Assembly (NCBI GenBank): GCA_963662465.1
Contig: OY759599.1
Coordinates: 4,608,001 to 4,672,000 of the forward strand
Direction: 5' to 3'
Origin: Desulfatiglandales bacterium
Lineage (GTDB): Bacteria; Desulfobacterota; DSM-4660; Desulfatiglandales; Desulfatiglandaceae
DNA: 64,000 nucleotides
This document shows, piece after piece, positions 11,531 to 37,255 of this stretch. Both the position numbers and the translations under genes were made by a program. The stretch's first letter is position 1. Each line of letters opens with the position of its first letter. A model generated the notes under the pieces. The model was not told where the DNA came from and did no database searches. It saw only the letters and a list, made by a program, of their open reading frames with translations.

Positions 11531-11533
11531 ATC

Positions 11534-15273: not shown

Positions 15274-15648
15274 TTACACTTCCTTTTCCCGGCAGCTTTT
15301 CAAAACCCGCGCCACCGCCGCTGTGAAACTCTTCCGGTCAAAGGGCTTTTCCATCCATTCCGTTTGCGTCACACGCATTTCGGCAATCCGCGGCTCGCCG
15401 CTTTGAAGGACCACATCAAGTTCCGTGGTCTCCACGTCCACGAGGGGAAACCCGAAAAACGATCCGACAATGAAACCGGGATCCCGGCCGAAAAGGGTTT
15501 CAGCAGCCGGGTTCACCAGACGAACGATGCCCTCCGCATCCGCAACGATTATGGCATCGCTGTTGTTGAATATGACCTGTGCCAGTTGACGTTCGCCGGC
15601 CCTGAGGGTCATGGTTTCCACATCTTGACGGGTGATATCGGTCATCAT
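15274..15648 (-). pseudogene. PAS domain fused to a receiver C-terminal remnant; probable internally deleted hybrid kinase
   Basis: PAS (DAIIVAD.EG.VRLVNPAAE.LFG..FGFP..EMRV...W) joined directly to KPF...AV.RVL, the last elements of a REC domain. Confidence 0.6.
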
Positions 15649-15664
15649 ATGTAACGCTTCCCTA

Positions 15665-17179
15665 TTATTTAAAAAGCTCTTTGACCCGGTCTATTTCTTC
15701 CGGTGCGGAAAAAACAGGATGGCCCGAGAGGATTCCGGTCACATTGCTGAAGGATTTCCCGATATGCATGCCTTCGCCGTCGATGTTGAATTCCCGGATA
15801 TCCTTGTCGTGCATGGAGCCCCGCATCTTGAGCGCCGTGATCCCGCGGCGCATCTCTCCGAACATCTCCACGTACCGAAGCAGGATAATCGTGTCGGTAA
15901 TGGTGGAGATGTGCGCCTCCGTCACCGACGTTCCCCCCATGAGTTCGCCGGTGGTGGATGTGAAGAGCCCCGCAACCTCCTGATGCTTGATAAAGGAGGT
16001 GAGGGCGATGACGAATTCCCGAAATCCCTTGATGGTGGAGACGCGCTCCAGGGCCGAAAGGCTGTCTACGATCACCCGGTGGGGTTTGAACTCCCGGATG
16101 ATGCTCTTGATGATGATCAGATGATCCTCCAGGCCTTCCGCTTCCGGATACCGGCATACCACCTTGAGTGTGCCGTCATTCTCCATCTGTTCAAAGTCTA
16201 TGCCCCAGCCGGTGGCATTTCTGAAAAGCTGCTCCCGGCTCTCCTCAAAGGCCAATATGAGCGCCTTCTGATTGTTTTTCGCCGCTTCCGCCGCAAACCC
16301 GGCGGAAAGCATGGTCTTTCCACATCCCGTGGCGCCGGATACCAGAATGATGGAGTCCCGAAAAAACCCGCCGCCGCACATCTTGTCCAGATCGGCGTTT
16401 CCGGAGCTGATACGGACGGTGGAAGAGCGCTGTTTCAATTCAATCCCCGATAGCGGTATGGCGACGATGCCGGTGTTCTTGATCACCGTAAACGGGTACT
16501 CTCCCTTCTGGTGGCTGGTGCCGCGGAATTTGAGGATCTCCATGGTGCGGCGGCGCTTTTCCGCCTCCAGAACATTGCGCAGGATGATCACGTTGTCGGC
16601 CACGAATTCCTCGATGCCGAACCGTGCGATAGCGCCATACTCCTCCGTGCGCTCCGCCGTGATGATAGCCGTCACGCCCATCTGTTTCACCGCGGCGGCT
16701 ATTTTGAAGAGTTCGTTGCGCACCATGCCCGCGTCGCTGAACCTCCCGAAGATCGATCCGATGGAATCCATGCTGACCCGCCTGGCGCCAATCTTTCCAA
16801 CAGCATATTCGATACGGGCCAGGAGGGCGCCAAGGTCATATTCTCCGGCAATGACGTGATCTTCTCCCACCACAGGAGAGGCATCCACAAAGGCCCACTT
16901 CCCTTCCAGCTCCCACTTTGCCACATCCCAGCCCAGAGAAATCACGTTCTTTCGGATATCATCGGGCGGTTCCTCGAAGGTGATAAAAACCCCCGGTTCT
17001 TCCTTTTTGAGGATCCCTTCGGAAAGAAACTGGACCGCAAACACCGTCTTGGCGCTTCCCGATGTGCCGGCGATGAGGGTGGTCCGCCCCTTCGGGAGCC
17101 CCCCTTCACTGATCATGTCGAATCCTTCAATGCCGGTCTCAATTTTCTCGATGCCTATGATTTTTTCCATCTCAGTCAT
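15665..17179 (-). CDS. kaiC: Circadian clock ATPase/kinase KaiC (double domain)
   Basis: Two RecA domains ([19 protein letters not shown] in both), [11 protein letters not shown] phosphosite motif, KMRGS.HDK, ILSG.P A-loop-like tail. Confidence 0.97.
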
Positions 17180-17484
17180 GCTTGATCTCCTTTCCCTTGA
17201 TTGTCGTCCGTCACGGGGGAGAGATCCAGTCCGAGGAGAACCTTCTCCGAATTGGAGAGATCGCCGATGATCCGCCTGAGCGGGGGCGGCAGGTCTTTGA
17301 TCAGGGTCGGCGTGGCGAGTATTTTTTCATTTTCCGCCAGCTGTGGACTCTCTAGTACATCAATGATCTGGAGATCGTAGAGATCTTTCAAATCCCGCTC
17401 GCAAATCTTCTGCAAATTTGAGATGGCGCGCTCTGATCTCGGCGTTTTCCCGGTGATATAAAGGCGCAACTTGAATTTGTTCAT
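17176..17484 (-). CDS. kaiB: Circadian clock protein KaiB
   Basis: [36 protein letters not shown]; overlaps the kaiC start. Confidence 0.97.
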
Positions 17485-17503
17485 TTTTCCCTCCGATAAA
17501 TGA

Positions 17504-18610
17504 TTATGATGGCTGTTCTGTTATTGTTTTTGGATTTGTAGAGATGCCGGCGCCCTGGGCACGGTTTCGATAAAATGACACCAGATGCCCCATAAGTTCA
17601 AGCACCATGATCCATCCTTCCCCGGTATAGGCCTTTTTCTTTTCAGCGGTAGCGGTTTCCCGGGCCTTCTCTTTGAGGGCGGTGGTGTGAATATCAACGA
17701 TATCACGGGGCCCTGCCTTGTAAAACCCCAGGCTTTCAGCCATTGAGGAGAGGCGCCCGGATATATCATGTTTTACTTTGAAGGCCTGCTGATCCAGGGC
17801 CAGATCCATCAGCGCTTTATAGCCGTCCACCAGATGGCGGAAGGTATCGGGAAACCCCTCCATCAGGGTCATTGTACCGTACATTTTGGCGGTGACACCG
17901 GTTTGGGGAGGAGAAGAAAGCGTGGCCAGGGAACGCAATTCCTTCTCCCGTCGTTCTCGATCCTTCGCCTGCTCCAACGCCGCATGAGTTCTCTTTAGTT
18001 GCTCCGCCTTCTCTTCCAACTCCCGGGTACGCGCTTCCACCAGTTCTTCCAGATGCCGGCGGTGCCCATCCAGTTCCTCCCGAACTTCGCTCAGATCACG
18101 GTTTTTCTGAATGGCGTCTTCATATCCGGAAAGGAGAAGGTTCAACATCTGCCTGCGACTTGCATATATGACTCGCCGCTCGTCCCCCACGGCCAGGTCC
18201 AGACCCCCTTCGGAATCCATTTCCCTTTGCAGCGGATGCCACTGGAGAATCGACGCTACTTTTGCGAGCAATTCCCCTTCTTGATACGGTTTAGTCAGGA
18301 AATAGTCCGCCATCACTTCAAGGGCACGAATAACGTCCGTTACGTTGGATAGCACCGTAAGCAGTACCACCGGAACTTCTCTTAAGGCATCATCGCCCTT
18401 GATGGCCTCGCACATCTCATATCCGTCCATCACCGGCATCTGAACATCGGACAGAATCAGATCGGGTCGGTCCTTTCGAGCCGCGGCAAGCCCTTCGCTG
18501 CCGTTTACCGCCACCCGGACCCCATAACTGTGCTCCCTGAGCAAGGCCTTGAGCAACATGGCCTGGGTCGGGCTGTCTTCAACGATCAGAATTTGGGGGA
18601 CTTCTTTCAT
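17504..18610 (-). CDS. Response regulator with C-terminal KaiA/RsbU_N-like helical domain (KaiA3-like)
   Basis: REC (D55, KP), coiled coil, then PRDIVDIH...[13 protein letters not shown], similar to the KaiA C-terminal helices; immediately upstream of kaiB. Confidence 0.75.
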
Positions 18611-18627
18611 GCCCGCTTCCTCTTTTG

Positions 18628-18655
18628 GATTGTTGATTGTCGATTGTTGATTGTT
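18628..18655. repeat. Heptamer tandem repeat (GATTGTT)x4
   Basis: gattgtt gattgtc gattgtt gattgtt. Confidence 0.85.
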
Positions 18656-20175
18656 TATAAAAGTCGCTCCACCGCCGCCCTGAAACTTTTCATTGCAAGC
18701 GGTTTTTCAAGAAAATCCGATGCGCCCAGACGCATGGCTTCCAGAACGTTTTCCTTTTCTCCAAAGCCCGTCACCATAATAACCCTGCAGTCAGGATTGA
18801 TCTCTCGAACCTTTTTCAATAATTCCAGACCACTCATGCCGGGCATATTGATATCGGTGATGAGTAACGGAAAAGGCTTTTTCCGGAATGCCTCAAGGGC
18901 CTTTTCCGGGTCTCCATACCCTTCGCACCCCAGGTTCATCCCCCGCAGAAATCTCATCATAATATCCACCAGCATCGGTTCATCGTCCACCACCATGATG
19001 CGGTTGGAATCCTTCCGCATGACCGCTAAACATTCGTCCACGACCCTGGCATCATAGCTGCTACCCCTTCCCCGGTTCAATTCTTCAATGACGATCTTTT
19101 TGGGAAGGGCGGGCCGGTAAGGCCTGTGGGTAATCATGGCGTCCACCACATCGGCCACCGCCAGAATGCGCGCCCAGGGGTGAATCTCCGCATCCTTAAG
19201 TCCGTGAGGATACCCTTTTCCGTCCAGCCGTTCATGGTGCTGCGATACCACCTCGGCCACGGGCCACGGAAACGGGATGCGATGCAGGGCCTGAAATGCC
19301 GTTTCAGGGTGCCGGCGGATAATGCCGAACTCGTTGTCGGACAACTTCCCCGGCTTGCTCAGGATACCCGATGAGATAACGACCTTTCCCAGATCGTGGA
19401 GTATGCCGCAAACCTTGAGGCCTTCGATGTCTTCCGCGGACATCCCCATTCTTTCCGCAATGCGAACCGCCAACTCCGTGACCCCTCGGGCATGCCCGGC
19501 CGTATAGGGATCACGGCTTTCCAGCAGTTCACTGATGGCCTGGGTGGTACCCACGAAGCTGGAGGTGAGTTCTTCGGTTTTCTCCCTAACCAGGCTCTCC
19601 AGTCTATCGTTCAATCCCTGGAGTTCAGCCTGGGTGTTCCTGAGCTGTCGGTTCTGTTCCAGAGCATTCTGATAGATAGAAAAAAAGAGGGTCAGGATCT
19701 GTTCGTGCCGGGAAGTTACCCGATGGATTTTGCCATCTACGAGGAGATCGAATTCTTTCGGTGTCTCCGGGGTTCTTTCTCCGGGAGGTGCATTTAAAAT
19801 GGCCTTCACGGATGAAAGAAAAAAGGTCTCATCATAGGGTTTGATCATATAGTAATCGGCGCCGGCGTTAATGGCCCGCACCACATCTTCCGGATTGGAG
19901 AGCGATGAAATAAGCATGATGGGGATTTTCCCGAGCAATGGATCGTGCTTTACGGCATGGGTCATCTCGCATCCGTCCATCTCCGGCATGACGATATCGC
20001 TGACAATGAGCGCCGGTTGTCGCTTGCCCGCTGCCGCAAGCCCTTCAATGCCGTTGACGGCCACCATAGTGGAATACCCCTGCTCATCCAGGATAAATTT
20101 AAATTGCGCCGCCTGTGTGGGGCTGTCTTCCACAATCAGAATGTCAAGTGGGTCTATCATCATCTTTTCCTTCAT
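18655..20175 (-). CDS. REC - HD-GYP phosphodiesterase - REC
   Basis: LHDLGK and HHERLDGKGYP motifs; N- and C-terminal receiver domains. Confidence 0.92.
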   Translation of the reverse strand: MKEKMMIDPLDILIVEDSPTQAAQFKFILDEQGYSTMVAVNGIEGLAAAGKRQPALIVSDIVMPEMDGCEMTHAVKHDPLLGKIPIMLISSLSNPEDVVRAINAGADYYMIKPYDETFFLSSVKAILNAPPGERTPETPKEFDLLVDGKIHRVTSRHEQILTLFFSIYQNALEQNRQLRNTQAELQGLNDRLESLVREKTEELTSSFVGTTQAISELLESRDPYTAGHARGVTELAVRIAERMGMSAEDIEGLKVCGILHDLGKVVISSGILSKPGKLSDNEFGIIRRHPETAFQALHRIPFPWPVAEVVSQHHERLDGKGYPHGLKDAEIHPWARILAVADVVDAMITHRPYRPALPKKIVIEELNRGRGSSYDARVVDECLAVMRKDSNRIMVVDDEPMLVDIMMRFLRGMNLGCEGYGDPEKALEAFRKKPFPLLITDINMPGMSGLELLKKVREINPDCRVIMVTGFGEKENVLEAMRLGASDFLEKPLAMKSFRAAVERLL

Positions 20176-20205: not shown

Positions 20206-22518
20206 CTAAGCGAGCTTGTACTGGGCCACAATGGCCTTGATTTCTTCTGCCAGTTCGTTAAGTCCGGCTGCCGCCTTCTCAGCCTGCTGAGTCCCTGCTT
20301 CCGTCTGGCCGGCCGCCTGGTCGATGCTTTCCATGGCCGAATTCACCTGGTCCATGCCCGCCAGCTGCTGGCGCGTACTGGCGGCAATCTGCCGGGCCGC
20401 TTCCTCTACCTTCTGAATGCGGCTCGCGATGGCTTCAATGGCCTCTCCCGTGGAGCGGGCCAGCTGTTGTCCCACCTCGGTACGCCTGGTCCCTTCTTCC
20501 GTCACCATGACAGCGGTATTGGTGGCTTTCTGAATGTCTCCCAGGATATCTTTTACCTGGGCCGTGGCCTGGCGCGACTGTTCCGCCAGGCTCCGGACTT
20601 CCCCCGCCACCACGGCGAACCCTTTTCCCGCCTCCCCCGCACGGGCCGCTTCAATAGCCGCATTCAACGCCAGCAGGTTGGACTGATCCGCGATATCGTT
20701 CACAGTGGCGATGATCGCCCCGATCTGCTGGGTCTGTTCACTGAGGGCCAGGATGGTCTCAGCGATATTGGCCACCTGCTCTTTGATGTTGTCCATTCCC
20801 GTTACGGTTTCCTTGACCGCCTCAAGGCCCCGCTTTGAAGCCTCCGTGGACTCCTCCACCATGCGGGACACCAGTGTCACCCGTTCATGTGACTGTTCCG
20901 CCGTCTGACGAACTTCCTGCACCGTCGTGCTGGTCTCGTTGACCGAGGCCGCCTGCTGGCTGACGGTGGCGGCCTGCTGGCTGGTGGTGGCCAGGATCTC
21001 ACTGGCCGCCGAAGAAATATTAGAAGTGGCTTCCCGCATGCGGGTAGCGAGATTGCGAAGTCCACTGGTCATAGCGTTGAGGTTCATGCCCAGGATGTCC
21101 AGATCGTCCTGACCGGTCACCGTTAACTGCCCGGTCAAATCCCCCTTGCCCACTTTTTCCACAAAGGTCACGTAGTTTCGAACCGTATCTTCCAGATACG
21201 CCTTCACCTTTCGTTCTTCAGCCGCCTTTTGCTCCACGTCCTCCATGGAGGTTTTCAGTTTTAGCACCATGCCGTTAAACGCATCGGCCAGAATGCGCAG
21301 CTCATCTTTTGATGTCACATGGGCTTCCACATCCAGCTTGCCGGATCTCACGGCCTGGGCCGTGTTCGTGATCTGTCGTATCGGCCGTGACAGGGTGGCG
21401 GCGATCCATAAGGCAAGAAGGGCCACGATGGCCGCCGCAACGCCACCGATCACCCAGGTCATATTCCGGAGATGCCGGGACAATGCAAAGGCGTTGGCTT
21501 CATCCACCTCGGCCAGGATGGCCCATTTCAACCCCCCCATGTTGAGGGGGGCATAGGAAGATAGCACCTTTTTTCCTCTATAATCCATGACCAGACCTGT
21601 ACCGCTTTCACCGGCCAGGGCCTTGCGGGAAGCCTCAGTATCCACGCCGTTTTCCGCAACGGTTCCCACCAGGGAAGCCTTCACCGAATGGGTTTCCCGA
21701 TTCAGAAGAGAATCCGATCGCATCCGTTTATCCGGTCCCACCAGGTAGGATTCTTCCCCCTTGGCGATTTTGGAACCAGAGGTCATGATATCGTTGATCA
21801 GGGTAAAGGGAATCTGATATACGAGGCTGCCGGCACGGACCGGACCGTTGTATATGGGCGCACCGGCGAACATGGCCGGTTCACCGTCCATGAGGCCCAC
21901 ATCCGCAAAGATAACATCACCATTTTTGGCGGATTTCAGTTGTTGAAAAAGATTCCCCAGGTTGGTGTCCTTGAAAACATCCGATGTGATATTCAGGCCG
22001 AAAATCTTTCCCTTGTTGGTGCTGTAAACCACATTTCCCTCATTGTTCACCAGGATAACATCCTCAATTTCCAGTATTTTCTTGTGTCCGGGAAGAGAGG
22101 CGTGACGCTCCTGATGGATTGCACTGTATCCGCTGCCGTCTTCCGCATTGAGAACGTCCGGTTTTCCCAGGTAGAGCGAACGAACTTTCTCCGGCCCCAC
22201 GAAGCGAAATCCATTGGTTAGATCTCCTATGCCATAAACGACATCCGGTTCTTTGGACATCTGGGCTAGATCCGCCACCCATCGCTCTATATTCCGGGTG
22301 ATTTGGCTCTTCTTCAGAAATGTTTCTTCCGCCATCTGAGAAAACGCCTCCTGACGCAGTGCCTTCTGGGCTTCCTCATAAAAAAGCACCCCCAGAACCG
22401 CAAGCGGGACCAGTGAAAACAACAGAAACCATACTAAGAGTTTTCCCTGAATGCTTCGAAAAAAATTGAGTGACCCCGCGGTTTCAACGGACATGTTCAC
22501 GCCTTCATCTTTCATCAT
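20206..22518 (-). CDS. Methyl-accepting chemotaxis protein (Cache-like, HAMP)
   Basis: Two TM segments, [34 protein letters not shown]. Confidence 0.93.
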
Positions 22519-22536: not shown

Positions 22537-23793
22537 TCAATACGTGGGCTGCCATTTGCCATCCTTGACCTTGATAATGTGGATGGTTCGAATGCCGTCT
22601 CCCTTTTTGTCAAAAACCATCATGCCGGCAGTGCCCCGCCACATTTTCATGTGAGCCAGACCCTCACGGATTTTGTTGCGGTTTTCCTGAACCTGGGCCG
22701 GATCACTGGTGATTCCTTCTTTCCTCATGATATTCACCAGAAACTGCAGGATATCGTACACCACCACATCGAACTGTTCCGCCTGACATTCCATGTCCGC
22801 GTATTTTTCTTTGCATCGCTTTGAAAATGCGTTCACATATTTGGAGACTTGAGGATTGGGGTCGCTCGGGTTAAACAGGGCGTTGGACCACACCCCTTCC
22901 GCCGCTTCCCCGGCCAGTTGGATGACGGTGGGTGTCCCCACGGTACTCCCCCCCAGGATCGGTTGGATCAACCCGCTAAGCCGTATTTCCTTAATGAGGG
23001 CGCCGGCCTCAAAAGGAAAAGCGGCAATACAGATACCGTCCGGTTTCAACGCCTGCACCTTTTTCACCTGTTCGCTGAAATTCTTTTCCCCGGTTTCAAA
23101 AGTAATGGGGTTTTCCAGGTCCAAAACCTTGACGTTTTGATCCTTGAATATCCTGGGCCACAGTTTTTCCCCAAGTGGTCGAGTAGACACATCCTTTCGG
23201 TCATACAGGATGGCAACGGTTTTGATGTGATTGGCCTTTATCCATGCTTGAGCTACGCTCACCTCTTTTTTTTCGGCGCTGACGGTCATGCGAAAGGCAT
23301 AGGGATATGCTTTGAGATCGCTCAGCCCCGGTTTAGAAGATGCAGTGGCAATAATAGGCACCTTCTCCTCGTTGGTCACTGAACGAAGGGTTTCAAAAGT
23401 ACCGCTGAAAAGCGGCCCGATCACGGCCAGAACCCGGTCCGAATTTGCCAGTTCCCGGTAGGCGGTGGTGGCCTTTGCCGCGTCCCCGCCCGTATCGAGG
23501 GCGAACATTTCCACCGGTGTTCCGTTCACCCCGCCCCGAAGGTTTATTTTTTCAACGGCCATCTCCATTGCCACAATCTGTTTCTTCCCCCAGTCCGGGC
23601 TGGGGCCGGTCATAGGCGCCAGAAGCCCCACTTTGATAGGACCTGGTTCCGCCGCGGCCGGACAGAGGAAGAACAACATCATGAAACCCATCAACGCCAT
23701 TACAATGGCCAAACTTTTAACCAAATTTTTCATAACCATTTCCCTCCTTAAAAGATTGGATTTCACTTTTTTGTAAAAGTCAGTTCTCAACAA
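22537..23793 (-). CDS. Periplasmic solute-binding protein (LivJ/PBP1 family); true start may be a later Met
   Basis: Signal peptide, IKVGLLAPMTG, IN..GGVNG, VLAVIGP. Confidence 0.88.
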   Translation of the reverse strand: MLRTDFYKKVKSNLLRREMVMKNLVKSLAIVMALMGFMMLFFLCPAAAEPGPIKVGLLAPMTGPSPDWGKKQIVAMEMAVEKINLRGGVNGTPVEMFALDTGGDAAKATTAYRELANSDRVLAVIGPLFSGTFETLRSVTNEEKVPIIATASSKPGLSDLKAYPYAFRMTVSAEKKEVSVAQAWIKANHIKTVAILYDRKDVSTRPLGEKLWPRIFKDQNVKVLDLENPITFETGEKNFSEQVKKVQALKPDGICIAAFPFEAGALIKEIRLSGLIQPILGGSTVGTPTVIQLAGEAAEGVWSNALFNPSDPNPQVSKYVNAFSKRCKEKYADMECQAEQFDVVVYDILQFLVNIMRKEGITSDPAQVQENRNKIREGLAHMKMWRGTAGMMVFDKKGDGIRTIHIIKVKDGKWQPTY

Positions 23794-24181
23794 CTATGAC
23801 GCCTTCCAGAACCCCTTTGCACAAGTTGAGGATCATATCGCCATCCACCGGCTTGTTGAGTACTTCGAATTCCGCGCCCTGGTCGGCCACGTGCTGCAGT
23901 TCCTCAAAGAATTCCCCGTAAAACGCCGTCACAATATAAACCGGAATGTCTTTATTCAGCTTTTGAATTTCACGAAGCGTCTCCACGCCATTCATTCCGG
24001 GCATCTTCAAATCGAGAAAGACCAGGTGGTAGCTTTGGCGTTTTAAAATTTCAATGCCGTCCATACCCGACGACGCCGTGTCCACCTGGTAGCCGCTATC
24101 TTCCAGGGCCAGTTCAAAGGATTTACGAATGGCGTCTTCATCATCAATCACAAGGATTCGTTTTGTCATTTTCTCCTCCAT
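23780..24181 (-). CDS. Single-domain response regulator
   Basis: ILVIDDE, FLDLKMPGMNG, KP. Confidence 0.9.
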   Translation of the reverse strand: MEEKMTKRILVIDDEDAIRKSFELALEDSGYQVDTASSGMDGIEILKRQSYHLVFLDLKMPGMNGVETLREIQKLNKDIPVYIVTAFYGEFFEELQHVADQGAEFEVLNKPVDGDMILNLCKGVLEGVIVVEN

Positions 24182-24196: not shown

Positions 24197-26392
24197 TCAC
24201 ACGGGCAACCGCACCGTGAAAACACTCCCTTTACCGACTTCGCTTCGGCATTCAATGGCGCCGCCGTGCTTTTCAATAATTCCCCGGCTCACGGACAATC
24301 CCAAACCTGTTCCTTTACCCACCGGCTTGGTGGTATAGAAAGGATCAAAGATCTTCGCTTCTATATCTTTCGGTATCCCGCTTCCGGTATCCTTCACCCG
24401 GACCCTCACAAAACCGTCCGAATCCCCATCGATGTGAACATCGATGGCACGGGTTTTTGTATCTGTCATGGCATCCAGCGCATTTCCGATGAGGTTCAGG
24501 AAAATCTGTTGGATATTGCCGGCGTTGACGGATACATCCGGACAGCCGGGCGATGTGGTCACGTTGAATGAAACCCCATCCTTTTCAATGCGATAGGAAA
24601 GGAGTTTGTGCACACGTTCAATGATTTCCCCGCAGCTGATCCGTTCAGTGTTGCCTTCATCATCCGGCCTCATGCGGCAAAAGGTCTGCAGGTTCTTAAC
24701 GATATCGATACACCGCCGCGTTTCCCGCTCCATGTCATGAAGAACCGAAAAGAGCTTGGATTCCGGATCCACATGTTTTTTGCAGTACTGCGCAAAATTG
24801 AGCATCCCCATCATGGGATTGTTCAGTTCGTGGGCGATCCCCGCCGTCAGCGTTCCCAGCGCCCCCAGTTTCTCCGCCTGAATCAACTGGGCCTGAGACT
24901 CTTTCAGGGCTACAGTACGCTCCTCCACCCGCTTTTCCAGATTGTCATGGGCGCTTTTGAGCTGATTTTCCGTCTCTTTAAGAAGGCTGATGTCCACAAA
25001 GCTCTCCAGCAGGTGACGTCGGCCTTTGAGGATGATGGGCGCCACGGTTTTGAGAATGGGCACTTCCCTGCCATCGCCGGTAATGAGAATCCGTTCCGAA
25101 TTGTCCACTTCCTCATGGAGATCGGTAATGGGACATCGCCCGATTTCCGCGGGGCATATGAACTGATGACAAAGGGAGCCCAGCACCTTTTCTCCCTCAA
25201 CGCTGATCATTTTGATGGCGGTCGGGTTGGCATCCACAATCAAATGGTTCTCAGGATCAATCACCACAATACCGGCGGAAGCATAATCGAAAATGATCCG
25301 CATCTGCGCCTCCCGTTCCGCCAAATCCTTTTCCATCTGTTTCCGCACTGAGATGTCCCGAATGACCCCTACGGTCCCCATGAAATCCCGGCTTTCCGCA
25401 TTGGGGTTGATCTCCCACATGCCGGAACTGTTCACCTCCACGATCAGATAATCGGAACTGAGCGCCTCAATGTATCCCGGCTCAGAGGATGCCTTGTTCC
25501 GGGGCACCAGGCAAACTTCAAGCCCTTCAGTTTTTCGTATCCCCGTCCGCTGTTCATTAAAAAGTTTGGGCGCCTTTTTATCGCCGGTTTTTGTTCCCTT
25601 TAATTTTTCCAGAACCATTGCACGGTCCACCCGCTGAGCATCCGCGGGCATAATGATGATGCTGAAATGCTGACCGATGAGGTCTTCAGGCATATACCCC
25701 AAACGATTGATAGCTTCGTTAACAAAGGTAAATCTACCCTGGGGATCGATACGGTACACAATATCCGGAATGGTCTTGACCAAGCTTCGGAATCGATTTT
25801 CCGAAAACCGCAATTCACAGACCCGATCCTCCAGCTTTTCATTGAGTTCCCGGAGTTCCTCCTGGGCCTTCAAAAGCTCTGTGTTCCGCTGCACGGCATT
25901 TTCGTAAGTGGAGAGCAGCAGGTTCATGATCCGCGTGCTGGTGGAGCGCACTTTCCGAAGCTTTCCCCCGACGACAATCTCGAGCTCCTCCCACTGCTCA
26001 TCTCTTTTCACCACTGGGGTATGGGTCAGGACGTCCTTCACACGGGAGAGCAGGGCGGTTTCATCAAAAGGCTTGGTCAGGTAGTAATCCGCTTTGGCAT
26101 CAAGACCTTTCAGGATATCTTCCGGGTCAGAAAGGGTGGTCAACAAAATGATCGGGATTTGCGCCAGATCCGAATCATCCTTGATGCAGCAGCACATCTC
26201 ATAACCGCTCATTTCGGGCATCATAACGTCGCTGATAATCAAGTGGGGATGCTCTTTCGATGCCGCCTCCAAACCTTGCCGCCCATTTGGGGCCACATGA
26301 ACCCCATAGCCCGCCTGTTCCAGCAGAAACTTGAGGTACATGGACTGGGTGGGACTGTCCTCCACCACCAGAATGCGGGATTTATTAACCAT
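24197..26392 (-). CDS. REC-PAS-PAS histidine kinase
   Basis: REC; two PAS domains; AGIAHELNNP H-box; KPVGKGTGLGLS. Confidence 0.93.
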   Translation of the reverse strand: MVNKSRILVVEDSPTQSMYLKFLLEQAGYGVHVAPNGRQGLEAASKEHPHLIISDVMMPEMSGYEMCCCIKDDSDLAQIPIILLTTLSDPEDILKGLDAKADYYLTKPFDETALLSRVKDVLTHTPVVKRDEQWEELEIVVGGKLRKVRSTSTRIMNLLLSTYENAVQRNTELLKAQEELRELNEKLEDRVCELRFSENRFRSLVKTIPDIVYRIDPQGRFTFVNEAINRLGYMPEDLIGQHFSIIIMPADAQRVDRAMVLEKLKGTKTGDKKAPKLFNEQRTGIRKTEGLEVCLVPRNKASSEPGYIEALSSDYLIVEVNSSGMWEINPNAESRDFMGTVGVIRDISVRKQMEKDLAEREAQMRIIFDYASAGIVVIDPENHLIVDANPTAIKMISVEGEKVLGSLCHQFICPAEIGRCPITDLHEEVDNSERILITGDGREVPILKTVAPIILKGRRHLLESFVDISLLKETENQLKSAHDNLEKRVEERTVALKESQAQLIQAEKLGALGTLTAGIAHELNNPMMGMLNFAQYCKKHVDPESKLFSVLHDMERETRRCIDIVKNLQTFCRMRPDDEGNTERISCGEIIERVHKLLSYRIEKDGVSFNVTTSPGCPDVSVNAGNIQQIFLNLIGNALDAMTDTKTRAIDVHIDGDSDGFVRVRVKDTGSGIPKDIEAKIFDPFYTTKPVGKGTGLGLSVSRGIIEKHGGAIECRSEVGKGSVFTVRLPV

Positions 26393-27865: not shown

Positions 27866-30248
27866 TTAACCGTTCTATGGTTTCCAGCAGTTCCTGCTGA
27901 TCGAAACTCCCTTTGGTGATATAGACATCCGCTCCCGCTTCCATCCCCTTCAGTTTGTCTTCAGGAGATTCCAGCGATGTGACCAGAACAATGGGGAGAT
28001 GCTCAAAGCGCTTGTCCTGCCTGACTTTTTCGGTCAGCTCAAAGCCGTTCATGCGGGGCATTTCAATATCAAACACCACCGCATCAAAGGATTCCCCCTG
28101 CATCTTTTCCCATCCTTCCATGCCGTCGGCGGCCTGGGAAACCTGATACCCCGCATTTTCCAGGATATTCCTCTCCAGGGTCCGGGTGGTTATGGAATCA
28201 TCCACCACCAGCACTTTCTTCTGAACCGTTTTTTTGGCACGGACGTTCATAAACAGCGAACTTCCCCGCAACCCCTGGGCTGAATGAATAATGCTCCCCG
28301 CATTCAGTATCATGACCACCTGACCGGTCCCCAGGATCGTGGCGCCTGAAATATTCCGTACCCGCTGCAACTGAGCCCCCAGGTTTTTGACCACCACCTC
28401 CTGTGCACCCAAAAATTCATCCACCTGAAAGGCGAGCTTTTTCTCCACCGCCCCCAGAACCACCACCCCGATTTTCTTACCGCTGTTTTCGCTCTCTTCT
28501 CGAACCGGAAGTTCCAGAATCTCCGCCATGGAAATCAGGGGCAACGCCTTGTCCCCAATACGAACAGCGGGTTTTCCTTCCATACGCCTGATCTCTTCCG
28601 GTTTAAACTGCATGATTCGTTCAACGGTGGTGTTGGGAACCGCCACGGTTTGACCCGCCACCTTCAGCATCAACACGTGGCTGGTGGCCAGGGTCAACGG
28701 AAGGATCAGGGTAAAGGAGGTCCCTTTGTCCACTTCGGTTCGGGTTTTCACCTGTCCATGCAGTTTTTGAAGCTGTTCCCGCACCACATCCATGCCGACA
28801 CCCCGGCCGGAGAGATCCGTGACCGTCACATGGGTGGAAAGGCCCGATTGAAACACCAGGTCAATGGTCTCCTCAGCGCTTAGGTTTTCCGCATCCGCCG
28901 GCGTGATGAGATTGTTTTTCACCGCCGCCCGGCGCACCGCCGCTAGATTGATGCCCGCACCATCATCGCTCACCTCCAGAACAATGTGGTTTCCACTTTG
29001 GGAGGCTTTGAGCTGAATGGTTCCCTGTTTGGTTTTCCCCTTTTTCACACGCTGATCCGGTGCTTCGATGCCGTGGTCTATGGCATTTCGAAGCAGGTGG
29101 GTCAGGGGGTCCTTCAACCCTTCAAGAACCTGCCGGTCAATTTCAGTCTCGGCGCCCCGCAGGACCAGTCGGACTTCTTTCCCCTTTTCCCGACCGATAT
29201 CGCGGATCATTCGCGGGAACAGATCAAACAGGGTGGCAATGGGCACCATGCGAACGCGCTGCACACCGTTCTGCATATCATCTGTCAGAAGGGCCAGGTG
29301 ACGGTAGTCACTCTCCAGTGACTCGGAGAGGCGGTTGATGGTTCGACCCACCTGGTGCAGGTGATTTTCATTGATGGAAAAGAAGTCGAGAAGCGCCGCC
29401 AATTCCGAATCTTTTAGAGTGCGACGTTCCAAAGCCCGTTTCCGGGCCCGGGATTTCCGCCATAATTTCTCCCAGCCGCCCATGACCCTTTGAACGGACT
29501 TTAATTCCCCGAGGCGCTGTTCCATCCGCATTCGGCTCACGAGCAATTCGCCCATTCCCGCCATGAGGGCATCCAGCTTTTCTGTTTTGACACGAATGGT
29601 ATCTCCGCCCATATCCCGTGAAAACCCCTTTTGCCGTCTGACATCTTCATCCCGGGATGAGTTTCCGGTGTTTTCCACGGGTTCACATGCCGTTGACAGG
29701 GCTTCCCGCCGCACAACCTCACCCGCGGGAATTTTGGTCGTCGGCTCTTTTTCACTTCCCCCTGGTCGCAATTCAGCCCCTTCCGGTTTTTTATCCGATG
29801 GGACTGGGGTTGACGTCTTGACCTTATCTTTTTTGTCGGTCAATTCTCCCCGCAGTGCTTCATCCAGTGCGCTCATGACCGATTTTCGGTCCTCAAAAGA
29901 AAGCACCTCTCCCTGGAGATGCAGGCGCATGGATTCCGTCAGGAGATCGGTGGCGCGAAGCAGTCGATCCACCAGTTGAGATGAAGACTGCAATTCCCCT
30001 TTTTTAAGGGCCCCCAGAACATCCTCCATCTTGTGGGCCACCGTACCGATGTCCTTCAAATCGACGGCACGGGCGGACCCCTTAATGCTGTGGGCCGACC
30101 GAAACAGGGATTTCAGCAGGTCATCTTTTTCGCCTCCCGGCAGGTCCTTTTCCAGTTCCAGAAGGCCCTTGTTCAATGCGGCTGCATGTTCTTCCAGTTC
30201 CACCCTGAAGGTGGCCACCAATTGACGCTGAAGTTCTTGGCGATCCAT
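27858..30248 (-). CDS. cheA: Hybrid CheA-REC kinase (WspE-like)
   Basis: Hpt FRSAHSIKG, HLLRNAIDHG, SGRGVGMDVV, CheW domain, C-terminal REC. Confidence 0.95.
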   Translation of the reverse strand: MDRQELQRQLVATFRVELEEHAAALNKGLLELEKDLPGGEKDDLLKSLFRSAHSIKGSARAVDLKDIGTVAHKMEDVLGALKKGELQSSSQLVDRLLRATDLLTESMRLHLQGEVLSFEDRKSVMSALDEALRGELTDKKDKVKTSTPVPSDKKPEGAELRPGGSEKEPTTKIPAGEVVRREALSTACEPVENTGNSSRDEDVRRQKGFSRDMGGDTIRVKTEKLDALMAGMGELLVSRMRMEQRLGELKSVQRVMGGWEKLWRKSRARKRALERRTLKDSELAALLDFFSINENHLHQVGRTINRLSESLESDYRHLALLTDDMQNGVQRVRMVPIATLFDLFPRMIRDIGREKGKEVRLVLRGAETEIDRQVLEGLKDPLTHLLRNAIDHGIEAPDQRVKKGKTKQGTIQLKASQSGNHIVLEVSDDGAGINLAAVRRAAVKNNLITPADAENLSAEETIDLVFQSGLSTHVTVTDLSGRGVGMDVVREQLQKLHGQVKTRTEVDKGTSFTLILPLTLATSHVLMLKVAGQTVAVPNTTVERIMQFKPEEIRRMEGKPAVRIGDKALPLISMAEILELPVREESENSGKKIGVVVLGAVEKKLAFQVDEFLGAQEVVVKNLGAQLQRVRNISGATILGTGQVVMILNAGSIIHSAQGLRGSSLFMNVRAKKTVQKKVLVVDDSITTRTLERNILENAGYQVSQAADGMEGWEKMQGESFDAVVFDIEMPRMNGFELTEKVRQDKRFEHLPIVLVTSLESPEDKLKGMEAGADVYITKGSFDQQELLETIERLIG

Positions 30249-30273: not shown

Positions 30274-32505
30274 TTAATTCAGGCGATACCGCTTCACAAT
30301 CCCCTTCAACTGCTCAGCCAGGACATTAAGATTTCGTACCGATTCCTCCACCTGCCGCGTACCTTCCTCAGTCTGGCCGGTGGCCTGATTAATGTTTTCC
30401 ATGGCGTTTGAAATCTGGTCCATACCGGCCAGCTGTTCCTGGGTACTTACGGCGATCTGTGAAATGGTCTGGGTCACCTTTTTGATATTCTCGTTGATGG
30501 CGGAAATGGCGGCCCCCGCCTTTTCCGCCTGTTTAACCCCCGCATCCGCCCGCTTGCTCCCTTCTTCCGTCACCATCACCGCCGCATTGGTGGATTTCTG
30601 AATCTCGCCCAGAATCTCCCGGACCTTGGACGTGGCCTGTCGTGACTGGTCCGCCAGGCTGCTCACTTCTCCGGCCACCACCGCAAAGCCCTTGCCCGCC
30701 TCGCCGGCCCGAGCCGCCTCGATGGTGGCGTTCAGGGCCAAGAGGTTGGACTGGTCCGCAATATCATTGACCGTTTCGATGATGTCTCCGATCTGTTGGG
30801 TCTGTTCGCTGAGGGCCAGAATATTTTCAGCAATGCCGGCCACCTGTTCCTTGATGCGGTTGACCCCGGCCGATGTCTCTCCCACGGCTAGAAGCCCCGA
30901 TTCCGCTTCGACCATGGACTCCCTGGCCATTTCAGCCACCTGGAGGCTCCGCTCAGAACTTTGCTTCGCGGTCTGCCGTGCCTGATCCACCGTAGTGGCG
31001 GTCTGGTTGACACCGGCCGCCTGCTCGCCGGCCGTGGCGGCCTGCTCCTGGGTAGCCGCCAAAATCTCAGCGGTAGCCGATGTCATGTTCTGTACCCCCT
31101 GGGCGACCTGGCTTGCCAGCTCTCTCAGGTTCCGGGTCATCTCGTTCAGATGATTCCCCAGGGCCGCCAACTCATCCTCGTTGTCCGGCGGTGTCACAAC
31201 AGCCGTGAGGTCACCCTTTCCAACCGCCTCCACAAAGGTTACATAATTTTTGACCGTCGCTTCAAGGTACTCTTTGGTCTTGCGGTCCGCTTCGGCCCGG
31301 TGTTCCACCGCCTCATTCATTTGGTTCAAATTGGCCACCATCTGATTAAAGGCTTCGGCCAAAAGACCGGATTCATCCTTTGCGTCCACCTTGGCCCTGA
31401 CCGCCAGATCGCCGGCGCTGATTTTTTCCGCCGCTTCCTTTAGTACCCCTATGGGTCTCGCGATTCGGGCCACCACGATCCAGAGAAGCACCAGGGCCAG
31501 GGCCGTTAAAGCCACACCGATCATGATCATACGCCACATAAGCCGGGTGGCTTCCTGAGTGACCACAACAAGTGGCAGATTGATATTGACGGACCAGGGC
31601 TTTTTGGTTTGACCGATGTGAACCGGTACGAATAACTCGATACGCCCTTCGTTACTTTCAATTACAGTTTTTCCTGACTGAACATTTTGCAGATCCACCT
31701 GCCAGTTCTGGTGTGTTTTCCGCATGTGTACACCAACATCCTCATTTAACCCGTCCGAAGCAGCAATCAAACCATCGTAAGTAATCAGATTGATCGTGGC
31801 GATTCCGGGAAAGGGGTTATGCTGCTTCAGATAGTCACCAAAATCCTTCAAATCCATGTCCGCCCCTGCGATACCTAGAAAAACACCGTTTTCCACGATG
31901 GGCGCCACCAGGGATGTCATCAATACTTCCTTCCCCTGAACCGGATATAGATAGGGCTCAATGATGCATTCCCGCTGCCGTTTTTTCGGCAGTTGATAAT
32001 AGTCGCCGGCTCCCTGAACCTCGTAGTTTTCAGGCGTCTCCACCTTGATCTCCCCTGAAGATCCTCGATTCCAGTAGACGATAAACCTACCCGTTGCGTC
32101 ATAGGGAAATCGGCTTTTATATTGTTCATCTTTGCCATCAAAGGCACCGGGTTCCCACAGGGTGTAGGTTCCGACAAAATCAGGATTCTTTTCCGTCACC
32201 CTTTTGAGCATCCCGTTGACCTGTTCCCGGGTAAGGCTTTTTCCGCCCTCTTTTTCCTTAACTCCCACTGAACCAAGCGCCTGTGCCAGGGTGCGCGCCG
32301 CATCCAGCGGCACCTCAAATTGGGTTTTAATAAAATTGGCCATCCCCTTCCCACCGGCCAAGACCTCCTTTTCCGCTGTCTCAAGGGCGGTCTTTCGCTG
32401 GGTAACAGCGGCGTAGGCCACAATCAGACCACAGGTAAGTAACATACAGATTCCCACCCACAGAACGATTTTCACTTTAATGGATCGACCTCTAAACTGC
32501 GCCAT
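30274..32505 (-). CDS. Methyl-accepting chemotaxis protein (dCache)
   Basis: EPYLYPV..MTS..API dCache motif, HAMP, MCP signalling domain. Confidence 0.93.
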
Positions 32506-32520: not shown

Positions 32521-33099
32521 TTAAACGGTTTCTTCCCTTACAATAATTCCCGGATGGGAGATGAGCTTTTCCATATCCAGAATCATGAGCATGTCCGAAG
32601 TCACCCCTTTAATAAACTCCTGGCCCCTGGCCGAAAGGGTTCCCGATGCCGCTTGCACCATTGCCGGTAAAATCTGCTCCAGTTTGGGCCGGTCTTCCGC
32701 CAGGATACAGAATTCCATGAGCATTCTCTCCGGTACGGTTTCGCCGCGGATCAACAGCACGTGGGCCTTTTCCATATTCATCTCAACGCTGATTCCCAGA
32801 TAGGCGGCAATATCCATAATGGAATAGATCCGGCCCCGGAGGTTGACCGCCCCCACAATGAAATCCGGCGTACACGGAACCGGTGACCACATCTCCCGCT
32901 TCAAGGGTTGAATCTCCTGAATATAGTGAAGGTCCACCCCGAAACGTTCTTCACCAATGGAAAAGGAAAGGAGCCGCAACACATCTTTTAAATCGGATTG
33001 TGTGTCCCCGCTCCGCGCCAGAATCCGGGCCCGGTCTTCCAGAATTTTTTGAATACTCACATCCAGGGGTATTTCGCTCGTCATGAGTGACCCTTTCAT
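32521..33099 (-). CDS. cheW: CheW adaptor
   Basis: PVPCTPDFIVGAVNLRG.I..IMD. Confidence 0.88.
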   Translation of the reverse strand: MKGSLMTSEIPLDVSIQKILEDRARILARSGDTQSDLKDVLRLLSFSIGEERFGVDLHYIQEIQPLKREMWSPVPCTPDFIVGAVNLRGRIYSIMDIAAYLGISVEMNMEKAHVLLIRGETVPERMLMEFCILAEDRPKLEQILPAMVQAASGTLSARGQEFIKGVTSDMLMILDMEKLISHPGIIVREETV

Positions 33100-34647
33100 C
33101 TATTTTAGCGTTTTCGCCATGGTCAGCAGTGTCCTTGCGGTCAGATCATCCGCACCCGGCAGAATCGTTTCCGGCGCCATTGCGGAGGCCAGGGCAATGG
33201 CCTGCCGGCGATGTCGTTCCGATTTCTCTTTCTGATTCAGCTGTCGATAGAGCATTGCCATACTCACGTGTGCCAGTGCAAAGCCGGGCTCCAGAAAAAG
33301 CGCCCGCTTGAGACGTTCCATGGCCCTTTTATTGTCGCCTGATTCCTGATGGACCAACCCCAGGGTATAATAAACCTCCGCTCTGAGGGGATTAATTTCG
33401 ATAGCCTGTTCGCAGAAAGAGCGGGCTTCTTCCATCTGTCCCACGTTGGCGTGGACCCGGCCCAACTGGTAGAGGCTGTCCGCATCCCGAGGGTTTTCGG
33501 CGAGGCAGCGAAAAAACAGATCTTTGGCCTCTTCATACCTCTTCCGTCGAATCAGATTCCTGCCCAGCTCCGCCAAATCAGGCTTGTCAGGTGGCGTGGG
33601 CAGGTCGGCACGCTCTGCCACCGGTACCGGCATGGTCGTCATCACAAAAGGCGTTTTCTTTAAACCGGCTGAAAAAACATCCTGCTCTATTATGGCAGAT
33701 ACCGGTTTAGATGCGTTTGAGGTTGTTTTTTCAAAGGCCCCCTCCTGAAAACGCCGCACGAACGGGGCAGGCTCATTCAATTTCCGGTATACGGTTCCGC
33801 CTGAAAATACATGGTACCCGTACTGGTCAAACACCGGTATACTGGTCTCGGAGGCTCCCATCATCAACCAACCGCCCGGGACCAGGCACTGGTAAAACCG
33901 TGAGACCACATGGCGTACCACATCTTCAGAGTAGTAGATGGCCACATTCCGGCACAGAATCAGGTCCATGGCGTTGGTGTTGGTAAAAAGAGAAGGATAA
34001 ACCGGTTCGTTCAAATTGAGGTATTCAAAGTGCACATTTTTGCGAATTCGGGGAATCGCTTCGTATTCATCACCTTCCCGGTTGAAATACCGGGCCTGAA
34101 ACAGGGGGTCGGTCTGTCGAAAGGACCAGGGCCGATAGCGAGCCATCTTCCCCTTATGAAGCACTTTTTTGTTGATATCCGTTCCCAGAATGCAGATGTT
34201 CCACTGATCTATGTCGGGAACCAGCTCCGCCAGAAGCATGGAAAGGGTATAGGCTTCTTCACCGGACGCACACCCGGCACTCCAGATGCGGATGCGCCGG
34301 TCATGCCCGTGGGCGGCAATGATCTGGGGCAGGAGATGCCGCCTCAGCGCTTTAATCTGGTTTTCGTCCCTGAAAAAATAGGTCTCCCCCACCGTCAGTT
34401 CTTCGATCAGCGCGTCCCACGGGGGACTGTCCGTTTCAGTTGCCTGAAGCATTTGAAAATACCGGTCCAGGTCGTCCTGGGCCGCTTTTTCGCACAGCAT
34501 GGTGATGCCCCGAGCCAGGGCGTTCCGCCGTTTGATTCCGAACAGCATGCCGGTCCTCTGCAGGACCAGTTTCTGAAACCGGTCATACTGATCATTGCTC
34601 AGAAAATGCTGAAATTTAGGCGTCGTATTCATGAATTCAGTCATCAA
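33100..34647 (-). CDS. cheR: CheR methyltransferase with TPR repeats (WspC-like)
   Basis: LTVGETYFFRD, IWSAGCASGEE, CRNVAIY, C-terminal TPRs. Confidence 0.93.
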   Translation of the reverse strand: MMTEFMNTTPKFQHFLSNDQYDRFQKLVLQRTGMLFGIKRRNALARGITMLCEKAAQDDLDRYFQMLQATETDSPPWDALIEELTVGETYFFRDENQIKALRRHLLPQIIAAHGHDRRIRIWSAGCASGEEAYTLSMLLAELVPDIDQWNICILGTDINKKVLHKGKMARYRPWSFRQTDPLFQARYFNREGDEYEAIPRIRKNVHFEYLNLNEPVYPSLFTNTNAMDLILCRNVAIYYSEDVVRHVVSRFYQCLVPGGWLMMGASETSIPVFDQYGYHVFSGGTVYRKLNEPAPFVRRFQEGAFEKTTSNASKPVSAIIEQDVFSAGLKKTPFVMTTMPVPVAERADLPTPPDKPDLAELGRNLIRRKRYEEAKDLFFRCLAENPRDADSLYQLGRVHANVGQMEEARSFCEQAIEINPLRAEVYYTLGLVHQESGDNKRAMERLKRALFLEPGFALAHVSMAMLYRQLNQKEKSERHRRQAIALASAMAPETILPGADDLTARTLLTMAKTLK

Positions 34648-35189
34648 CCCGCCTCGGGTTCTTCAAATTCGATGACGGCTCCGGTGTCAACCTCATCGGC
34701 TTCCAGCGCCAGATAGACCTCATCATTTTTTCGAATCACCGCATTCAACAGCGGGGACTTCCTAAGGGTGCCTTCAGGTTTGGCCACATGATCCTCGGAA
34801 ACAGCGATCACCTCCTCCACCGTTTCGGCAATGACACCCAGTTTTCGATTCTGTGTTTGCATCACCAGTATCCGATGATCCGGATGTACCCCTACCCGCG
34901 ACAATCCCAGCCTTTTTCTCAAGTTGATGACCGGTATCACCGTTCCCCCCAGATTGATGAGTCCGGAAATCCACTCCGGCGCTTCCGGTACCGGGACCAG
35001 TGCCGCCATGCGGATCACACGCGCCACTTTTTCCAGTGGAAAAGCCAGTTGCCGATTACCAATGCGAAATGTCAGAAAATGGCCCGCCATTCCCTCCAAA
35101 TACGGGTCTCGGATTTCCCGCGGCGCCGGCTTTTTATCCGTGGGTGCTTTTGGTGTCTTTGTCATCTCTTTTTTTTCTCCAGTTTTCAA
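34644..35189 (-). CDS. cheW: CheW adaptor
   Basis: [25 protein letters not shown]. Confidence 0.9.
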
Positions 35190-37255
35190 GAACGTGTGTA
35201 CTGTTCAACGATCCGCCTGAGCTGTTCGGCCTGGGCATTCAAGTCTTGAACCGCCCCTTCCACCTGCTGAATCCCCGCTTCACTCTGGGTCGTTGCCTGG
35301 TCAATGTTCTCCATGGCAGCGCTGATCTGGTCCATCCCCGCCAGTTGTTCCTGGGCGCTGACCGCAATCTGTTGTATCGTTCGGGTCACGCCTTCTATAT
35401 TTCGATTGATGCTTTGAATGGCCTTACCTGCCTTCTCGGCCTGCAACACCCCTTTGTCAGCACGTTTTGCCCCCTCTTCCGTCACCATCACCGCCGTGTT
35501 ACTCGCCTTCTGGATCTGTCCAAGGATCTCCTGAACCCTAGCGGTGGCATCTCTTGACTGCACCGCCAGACTCCGCACCTCACCGGCCACCACGGCAAAT
35601 CCTTTGCCCGCCTCGCCGGCCCGGGCCGCCTCGATGGCCGCGTTCAGTGCCAGCAGATTTGACTGATCCGCGATGTCGTTCACCGTCTCGATGATCTCAC
35701 CGATCTGCTGCGTCTGTTCGCTGAGGGAAAGGATGGTCGCCGCAATGCTTTCCACCTGCTCCTTGATGCGGTTGACACCCTCCAGAGTGCTTTCCACCGC
35801 CCTGAACCCCTCATCGGCCTCTTTGGAAGATTCCTCTGCGACTCTAGCCACCTGCTGAGCGCGTTCCGCTGACTGTTTAGCGGTCTGCCGGGCCTGCTCC
35901 ACGGTGCCGGCAGTCTGGTTCACGGCGGCCGCCTGCTCGCCGGCGCCGGCGGCCTGTTCACTGGTGGTGGCCAGGATCTCACTGGTGGCCGTCGTAATAT
36001 TCCTCACTGCGACACCGATCTGCCCTTGGAGAAAATCGTTGGCGCTCTGAAGTGCCCGTTCAATTTCTTTGAGGTCGCTCACATCCGTGATATATTCCAC
36101 ACCGCCCACCACATTTCCTGACACATCCAAGAGCGGCACACCCATGTAATGAATGGGCATATTTCCGGTTCCCACTAATACGGTCTGTCCCGAGGTGGCC
36201 TTTTTTTGTTCCATGGCCTGCCTTACGCGGCACTCATCCGTATTACAGTGTTCGTTCCTGAACAGGTCATAGCAGTTTTTCCCGATGCCCTTTTCAACGG
36301 TGGTTTGCGCAAACGCGGCGGCTTTTTGGTTCATGAATTGAATGTTAAATTGCCGATCAATCGCCGTAACCGGGACAGGCGCATTATTCAGATAATTCTC
36401 CATTTGATTCATCGTCCGCTGAAGACTCTCGACCATCTGATTGAAGGCATCCGCCAATACCTTCGTCTCATCTCCGGAATCGATCCTGAGCCGCTCCGTC
36501 AAATCTCCCCCGGCCACCCGCCCGGCAAACCCAACCACCGCATTGAGGGGTTTAATGATGGACCTGATCGTTTTCATTGAAAAGGAGATGCAGATAACAA
36601 GGAGTAACGCGAGTGCAATCCACAGGGCTTTTTTTGTCATGGAAACAGCCCATGCCGACAATTTTCCCACCCCGGCGGAAAACATTGCGGTCGTACGATC
36701 CATTTCTTCATTGGTTTTATCAATATCCGCTAATAGCGCTTTCTTTTCAACTGAATCTTCGGTTTTGGTGTATTTTTCCGCTAATGCCCGGTACCGAACT
36801 GCCAATGCGTTTGCATGTTGTGAGATCTCAACGAGTGACACCACCAGCGGCTGAGAAGAGAGAAAACCGACAATGGTTATGATATCAAGGGCTTCATCGT
36901 CATTCACGGAAGGAAACCAGTGGGCCATATTCTTCGCGATTTCCGCCTTTGGTTTAATCTTCAGATCCTTGATGATCGATCCAAAAATGCCACTCAACTT
37001 CATGGTGATTTCCATGTGCGAATTAAATTTGTTATAAAATGCCGCATCTCCGGTTCTGACATACTCCCCAAAGGAATACGCGGCCTCATAAAAGTTGACC
37101 GTATGATCGCGTTCGGACCGGGTGATTAGAAGTGCCCGGTCTACGACCTTTAAAGATACCAGTCCGATAGCCGTGATAATGAGACAGGCGATGACCGGAA
37201 TACTGACCAGGGCAAAAATTTTCTTTGCGATTGAGTCTGAAATAGAAAACCTCAT
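35186..37255 (-). CDS. Methyl-accepting chemotaxis protein with HAMP and cytoplasmic PAS
   Basis: TM-helical sensor-TM-HAMP, PAS ([10 protein letters not shown]...EC), MCP domain. Confidence 0.92.

Follow-up and report, generated by a model that had tools for sequence, protein, structure and literature searches.

The window analysed here is the whole stretch of 64,000 nucleotides at positions 4,608,001 to 4,672,000 (forward strand) of contig OY759599.1, from a Desulfatiglandales bacterium (GCA_963662465.1) whose genome is a single contig of 8.16 Mb. On its minus strand, from position 37255 down to 15274, lie 17 co-oriented open reading frames (ORFs): a chemosensory cluster of the ACF (alternative cellular function) type in the order of the Wsp system, followed by kaiA3, kaiB and kaiC (Table 1). 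A first-pass annotation had named 16 of these genes, and all were found on the minus strand in the order given there; the 124-aa PAS ORF after kaiC is added here. By Pfam, the products are, in order, a methyl-accepting chemotaxis protein (MCP), CheW, CheR-TPR, CheW, MCP, CheA (Hpt-dimer-ATPase-CheW-REC), REC-CheB, REC, REC-PAS-PAS-histidine kinase (HK), REC, Peripla_BP_6, MCP, REC-HD-REC, REC, KaiB and KaiC. The phosphorylatable His of the CheA Hpt domain, the Asp of the output receivers, the HD and GYP motifs, both EE pairs of KaiC and its S425/T426 are intact. The short gaps and overlaps described earlier are also there: the 16 junctions span -14 to +44 bp, single values of which may shift slightly because the ORF starts are mechanical first-start calls, and 300 bp lie ahead of the first MCP gene. 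Judged by spacing only, the 17 genes would form one operon. A promoter consensus scan stayed near chance (18 versus 11.9±3.2; terminators, 26 versus 23.4±4.0), and a further promoter and terminator scan (10 versus 6.2 and 8 versus 10.2) was uninformative as well. Public RNA runs cover little of the stretch (0.09-0.10 of words), and their contigs come mostly from relatives about 90% alike. None of the listed RNA contig pieces spans the junction between the HD-GYP gene and kaiA3; such contigs cannot prove a single transcript, and they are evidence in neither direction.

Table 1. Genes of the chemosensory-Kai run, in order of transcription (positions in the window).
Feature	Position	Strand	Basis
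MCP1: two transmembrane helices, HAMP, PAS, MCP signalling domain, likely 40H class	35186..37255	-	Pfam; 141 residues from hairpin tip to C-terminus
CheW, WspB position	34644..35189	-	Pfam
CheR-TPR methyltransferase, WspC-like	33100..34647	-	Pfam
CheW, WspD position	32521..33099	-	Pfam
MCP2: PDC/dCache sensor, HAMP, signalling domain; not at this spot in G099	30274..32505	-	Pfam, locus comparison
Hybrid CheA-REC, ACF type; Hpt His in motif AHSIKG, REC Asp727	27858..30248	-	
REC-CheB methylesterase	26813..27865	-	Pfam
Stand-alone receiver, similar to the CheB receiver	26385..26816	-	
Output 1: receiver-plus-linker, PAS-PAS histidine kinase; Asp55, His520	24197..26392	-	
Stand-alone receiver, Asp57; probable target of the kinase ahead of it (putative role)	23780..24181	-	
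Peripla_BP_6 solute-binding protein, no permease adjoining; likely ligand carrier for MCP3	22537..23793	-	
MCP3: dCache, HAMP, signalling domain	20206..22518	-	
Output 2: receiver-plus-linker, HD-GYP phosphodiesterase with intact motifs, second receiver	18655..20175	-	
Output 3: KaiA3-type; ACF-type receiver, linker, coiled coil, KaiA C-terminal four-helix domain	17504..18610	-	
KaiB	17176..17484	-	Pfam
Double-domain KaiC, KaiC3 type: both EE pairs, S425/T426, short C-terminus	15665..17179	-	
124-aa PAS ORF, likely a remnant	15274..15648	-	Pfam and comparison with related clusters

The chemosensory half is assigned to the ACF class by its domain composition. CheR is fused to TPR repeats (Pfam), CheA groups with other CheA-REC proteins of CheR-TPR clusters, and the cluster encodes the multidomain response regulators REC-PAS-HK, REC-HD-GYP-REC and REC-KaiA. 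A C-terminal REC on CheA and 40H chemoreceptors are features that we take to be typical of the class, and the order MCP-W-R-W-A-B we take to be that of Wsp. All three MCPs have 141 residues from the hairpin tip to the C-terminus, which fits 20 heptads per arm; their presumed 40H assignment comes from arm length. In the available text of PMC3447774, the ACF class is marked by CheR-TPR, the CheA-REC hybrid and multidomain response regulators. A flagellar (F-class) identity was rejected, since the cluster has neither a CheA lacking REC nor a canonical CheR, and its outputs are not single-domain proteins only; a CheA without REC adjoins Flagellin_N genes elsewhere in the genome. As the first-pass annotation stated, no flagellar or pilin family was detected among the 53 window sequences scanned, which is weak evidence only. 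With Flagellin_N-domain genes and pilT present elsewhere in the genome, little can be read from a window in which motility genes are missing, and we rejected this as an argument. The pairing of a solute-binding protein gene with an MCP gene recurs in L146, L174, L177 and L180.

Pfam gave no match on the KaiA-like C-terminal domain of the window protein and matched KaiA weakly in 4 of 21 relatives, and a PDB search with the single C-domain sequence returned nothing meaningful. With a profile of the 141-residue domain and 20 relatives, seven KaiA chains headed the PDB ranking (E 8e-4 to 0.04). A model of the domain (pLDDT 84) matched KaiA with Z scores of 10.6 (root-mean-square deviation 3.4, 105 aligned) and 10.4 (2.5, 90), in a tie with the stressosome domain 3zta (Z 10.9), and the top six Foldseek rows were KaiA, yet with E values of at least 0.018. 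By these comparisons the protein ends in a KaiA-like four-helix domain. Its receiver keeps E11, D12, D55, T85 and K107, and hence the phospho-acceptor Asp. The C-domain is 53% identical to that of Microcystis receiver genes located upstream of kaiB without kaiC, and the window KaiC is 68-69% identical to the KaiA3-linked KaiC (KaiC3 position) of Crocosphaera-type two-system loci, against 55% to the canonical KaiC there. The kaiA3-kaiB-kaiC synteny with a KaiC3-type KaiC was established through Microcystis, Crocosphaera and Chloroherpetonaceae loci, not through Synechocystis Sll0485 itself. From the KaiA-profile ranking, the Microcystis layout and the Crocosphaera KaiC identities, the genes are assigned to the known KaiA3-KaiB3-KaiC3 type. 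The KaiA3 domain is held by 1434 clusters at 50% identity, and the closest named locus, L017, is 99% identical in the KaiA domain. The module is patchy, being found in 3 of 105 genomes of the family and 10 of 401 of the phylum (both counts include the source genome).

The N-terminus of KaiA3 is a receiver-plus-linker module common to the kinase and HD-GYP outputs of the cluster. Among the 267 REC-containing ORFs of the genome, four others show 54-60% identity to the KaiA3 receiver and have the same linker, the next best reaching 43%. These are the kinase and the HD-GYP protein of this cluster, a kinase encoded behind a paralogous CheA-REC gene, and an orphan; three of the four lie at most 10 kb behind a co-oriented CheA-REC gene (genome baseline, 24/262). 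Module genes other than KaiA3 were then fetched by similarity alone, the best 21-31 candidates per genome being scored: co-oriented cheA or cheB was upstream of 30 of the 36, three were orphans and three lay on short contigs. All 18 cheA genes seen upstream of module genes encode CheA-REC hybrids, in several clusters the receiver-plus-linker gene is directly 3′ of cheB, and in the phylum sample the module stands behind cheA or cheB in 4 of 5 genomes. This consistent place makes the module the likely cognate receiver of the ACF CheA.

Because the KaiA3 receiver is of the same kind as those of the other outputs and stands in an unbroken gene run, chemical signals are likely to switch the Kai timer directly. 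We propose that the ACF CheA phosphorylates KaiA3 alongside two other outputs, a kinase and a cyclic di-GMP (c-di-GMP) phosphodiesterase, and that the Kai module would act as a slow switch or timer of a chemical cue; we give this reading a probability of roughly 0.55. Three membrane MCPs would control CheA, one of them probably fed by an amino-acid-type binding protein, and CheR and CheB would provide adaptation. The hybrid CheA would pass phosphate to three outputs, namely the second histidine kinase, the HD-GYP c-di-GMP phosphodiesterase and KaiA3. Phosphorylation of KaiA3 at Asp55 would alter the stimulation of KaiC autophosphorylation by the C-terminal dimer, KaiB would reset the switch, and the state of KaiC would be passed on to a PAS-kinase or GGDEF output. 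Since the gene that follows kaiC here is apparently a remnant, any such output would act in trans. Rather than keeping a 24 h rhythm, the Kai module most likely provides a delay after a chemical cue or a memory of it.

The arrangement could also be one of co-location only, in which a kai cassette sits in a recombining signalling island, its ACF receiver was acquired by shuffling, and another kinase, or none, acts on it. We consider this possible but doubtful, in part because the module has been joined to KaiA domains repeatedly. A receiver-plus-linker is present in only 7 of 198 KaiA3-domain proteins; the close KaiA3 group mostly has a PAS N-terminus (28/43), with an ordinary receiver in six. 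In L019 the PAS is retained and the receiver-plus-linker has been added in front of it. A single origin of six fusion receivers was rejected (approximately unbiased test, p-AU 0.0017; quick tree, long branches present), which suggests that the module joined the KaiA domain more than once. In L037 the module adjoins cheW and cheR orthologues (76% and 84%) in a rearranged order. The context of the fusion P0119 was sought in 13 genomes of the order of G119, which gave only a KaiA-less relative behind cheB, and 251 genomes of the order of L019 yielded no new strong KaiA3 locus.

The neighbourhoods of kai relatives also speak against mere co-location. Annotation covered 20 loci from genomes, 80 of the 100 from metagenomes and the surroundings of 8 hits in the phylum; a row entered the survey with 6 kb or more of upstream sequence, after removal of 20 duplicates and of loci derived from the window. 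The window KaiC falls within a 16-row clade (SH-aLRT 100, quick tree) of Nitrospirota and several Thermodesulfobacteriota groups, across which KaiC is 86-100% identical; the KaiA3 receiver residues are all intact. A co-oriented cheA lies within 10 kb upstream in 8 of 11 loci of this clade and in none of the 33 distant rows (G099, with cheA 14 kb upstream, was scored as a miss), and any che gene occurs in 11/11 versus 7/33; among the distant rows are two canonical kaiA genes and several nearly identical loci of cyanobacteria. Three CheA lineages are linked to the clade. Seven of the eight cheA-linked close loci have mcp-cheW-cheY-cheB-cheA-cheC-cheD clusters, some cut by contig ends, with kaiA3 starting a few bases after cheD in L039 and L051; the ACF clusters of L019 and of the window lineage stem from two other CheA subclades. 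The N-terminal domain of KaiA3 tracks the class of the adjacent cluster: it is a PAS in the CheC/CheD-type loci (two rows are not annotated at that end) and an ACF receiver in the ACF-linked loci (the window, G099, L019 and L037).

Several observations weigh against the proposed phosphotransfer to KaiA3. The CheC/CheD-type link probably represents one event, and the close loci are kin, not independent. For the window, L037 and L019, which are the fusions with known context, one origin is not rejected (p 0.098), and the distant fusions P0109, P0119 and P0175 are known as proteins whose neighbourhoods fall outside the comparison. The KaiA3 receiver groups with kinases of G052 and G054 and with the orphan gene of the source genome (SH-aLRT 96), not with its own neighbours, so that specificity for this CheA is not guaranteed; 9 CheA and 16 CheB matches are found genome-wide. 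Outside cyanobacteria, kaiC is generally near signalling genes, according to the available part of PMC3164672. Five related genomes (G098, G053, G097, G054 and G052; 83-98% complete) have ACF clusters related to that of the window (CheA 47-83% identical) and gave neither a match to KaiA3, with the profile that found the source genome and nine others, nor a KaiC above the cut-off; the paralogous ACF cluster of the source genome has no kaiA3 either. The PAS ORF after kaiC shares 45-48% identity with the PAS region of the REC-PAS-REC-GGDEF gene at the end of related clusters and is likely the remnant of a deleted output gene. Most relatives encode a PAS kinase or GGDEF output directly after kaiC, so the output normally found there would have been lost here. 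Co-location gains further from the variable tail of the cluster among close relatives, from the five relatives without KaiA3/KaiC3, from a KaiA3 receiver that is no copy of its neighbours' receivers, and from what comes after the run: the remnant, a parE-like gene that is broken, and a BREX system. Signalling genes on one strand also take up about 41 kb of the window. Exact synteny is not conserved: in those relatives the ACF cluster occurs with no KaiA3/KaiC3 found, and cheA is missing from the vicinity of most KaiA3BC loci. In the proposed reading, the Kai module is an add-on output that a cluster may have or lack.

The first-pass annotation had read the locus as a chemically entrained clock. 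Its link from CheA to KaiA has gained comparative support (receiver type, repeated fusion, clade-specific neighbourhood), and nothing tested supports the entrained clock. That KaiA3B3C3 is a self-sustained oscillator of near-24 h period, with chemoreceptors resetting its phase, strikes us as improbable. CheR/CheB adaptation gives transient signals, and the module is patchy, both of which count against such an oscillator, even though the three Kai proteins are intact and KaiC keeps its ST sites. Moreover, a group III KaiC of Rhodospirillum rubrum combined with Synechococcus KaiA (not its own KaiA3) gave no oscillation, as given in the available text of PMC12081879. In favour of an oscillator, the in vitro oscillation of Synechocystis KaiA3B3C3 is damped and temperature-compensated in the corresponding text of PMC11372060. 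Chemoreceptor arrays might even be a recurrent, independently evolved Kai input, with an ACF CheA that phosphorylates KaiA3 directly and so resets a self-sustained KaiA3B3C3 rhythm in a non-photosynthetic bacterium and the KaiA N-terminus swapped to match the upstream che class; this is unlikely in our view, and if true it would describe a clock set by chemicals rather than light.

Signals could also flow in reverse, with a Kai timer gating the chemosensory outputs and the KaiA3 receiver serving as a phosphate sink, or KaiB binding PAS outputs. A solo kaiB with a REC-PAS-REC-GGDEF gene closes several related ACF clusters, also where KaiC3 was not found, and PAS domains of KidA bind KaiB (PMC9478674, available text). 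KaiA is nevertheless built like a response regulator, its KaiA domain standing where the output domain would be, and the solo kaiB and GGDEF pair is absent from this cluster, so that we regard reverse flow as very improbable. The paralogous ACF cluster (G000:C1:1959680-1977050, L146; CheA 71%) is one of those with this ending, as are L011 and L175-L178. Five solo KaiBs and one from L037 form a single divergent clade (SH-aLRT 99). A member occurs in G053, a genome without a double-domain KaiC match, and the layout is the same in G054; solo KaiB is possibly a KaiC-independent adaptor.

Other che arrangements were seen next to kai genes. CheC/CheD-type clusters precede PAS-KaiA3-kaiB-kaiC in L018 (6977-9034), L020, L022, L039, L048, L049, L051 and L117; in L018 cheC-cheD alone is kept, 6 bp ahead of kaiA3. 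Several of these clusters encode MCPs with N-terminal parts that resemble poly-HAMP repeats by eye. The idea that such clusters belong to non-flagellated genomes was rejected, as Flagellin_N and FliMN matches were present in 4 of 5. A receptor-less cheR/cheB with a sensor kinase upstream of KaiA3BC recurs across lineages (L021, L054, L077, L090, L016 and L119).

A second kai locus lies about 18 kb past kaiC on the same strand (G000:C1:4602975-4605386; L002, L126), with a KaiC2-like gene (38% identity, extended C-terminus), two kaiB genes, and then HK-REC, cheR and multi-REC kinases. Between the two kai loci stands a BREX system (379-13657, plus strand; BrxA, BrxC, PglZ, BrxL) of lower GC content (42-48%), with inserted AAA_21 ATPase and Schlafen AlbA_2/HATPase_c_4 genes; it is not within 17 kb downstream of kaiC in G099. 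The parE-like toxin gene of a toxin-antitoxin pair (14750-15076, minus strand) has an internal TGA stop, and more toxin-antitoxin-type genes (HTH, HipA-like, ParE-like) lie at 58732-61865. Upstream of the run, thirteen co-oriented signalling genes (37556-55973, minus strand; kinases, receivers, SBP-kinase pairs with solute-binding proteins, a sigma-54 activator) have the same order in G099, and copies of parts of this region, 74-89% similar, sit 30-50 kb before the window. A CheB-CheR-PAS gene (62196-63930, minus strand, and L125) appears split over several ORFs.

The role of Kai proteins outside cyanobacteria is an open question on which this locus bears. It names a putative donor, the ACF CheA, and an acceptor, Asp55 of KaiA3, and the two same-family receivers of the kinase and the HD-GYP protein can serve as positive controls from within the cluster. 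As every protein required is soluble, the coupling can be tested in vitro. According to the available text of PMC11372060, the Asp is retained in KaiA3, whose cognate kinase is stated to be unidentified; phosphotransfer from the ACF CheA, if true, would supply the missing input kinase for a KaiA3-type clock and add the KaiA domain to chemosensory outputs. A literature search over titles and abstract openings, with most subscription papers and the supplements of PMC11372060 and PMC3447774 outside it, found neither Kai-chemosensory coupling nor KaiA as a chemosensory output, and the parts of PMC8113500 and bioRxiv 10.1101/2023.11.27.568837 that were available contain no description of the coupling.

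The closest known system is KaiA3-KaiB3-KaiC3 of Synechocystis sp. PCC 6803 (Kobler et al. 2024, PMC11372060), which, as far as its available text goes, has the phospho-Asp receiver with a KaiA-like C-domain, the kaiA3-kaiB-kaiC order and the short KaiC in common with the window. The window protein differs in that its receiver is of the ACF output family and comes with an additional linker and a coiled coil (368 aa, against about 290), and the whole module stands behind a complete chemosensory cluster. The same text places Microcystis KaiA3 upstream of kaiB without kaiC, and Desulfobacterota is not among the genera it names for the KaiA3 system. In non-cyanobacterial KaiBC hourglass timers and kaiC-kinase operons (Rhodobacter KaiC2; Ramlibacter, PMC3164672, in part), kaiC likewise adjoins histidine kinase or GGDEF genes; the window KaiC differs in having an activator of the KaiA type and in its far lower score against the 568-aa KaiC entries (E 1e-95, compared with 1e-180 for cyanobacterial KaiC). 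ACF pathways with CheR-TPR (Pseudomonas Wsp; Munoz-Martinez et al. 2012, PMC3447774) share CheR-TPR, CheA-REC, and multidomain kinase and c-di-GMP outputs; the output domains that the available text lists do not include KaiA. Compared with Wsp, the window has three MCPs, a solute-binding protein and three receiver-plus-linker outputs, with HD-GYP in place of the GGDEF of WspR. Both halves of the locus belong to known families, and the parts that appear new within the literature searched are their coupling and the use of KaiA as a chemosensory output domain.

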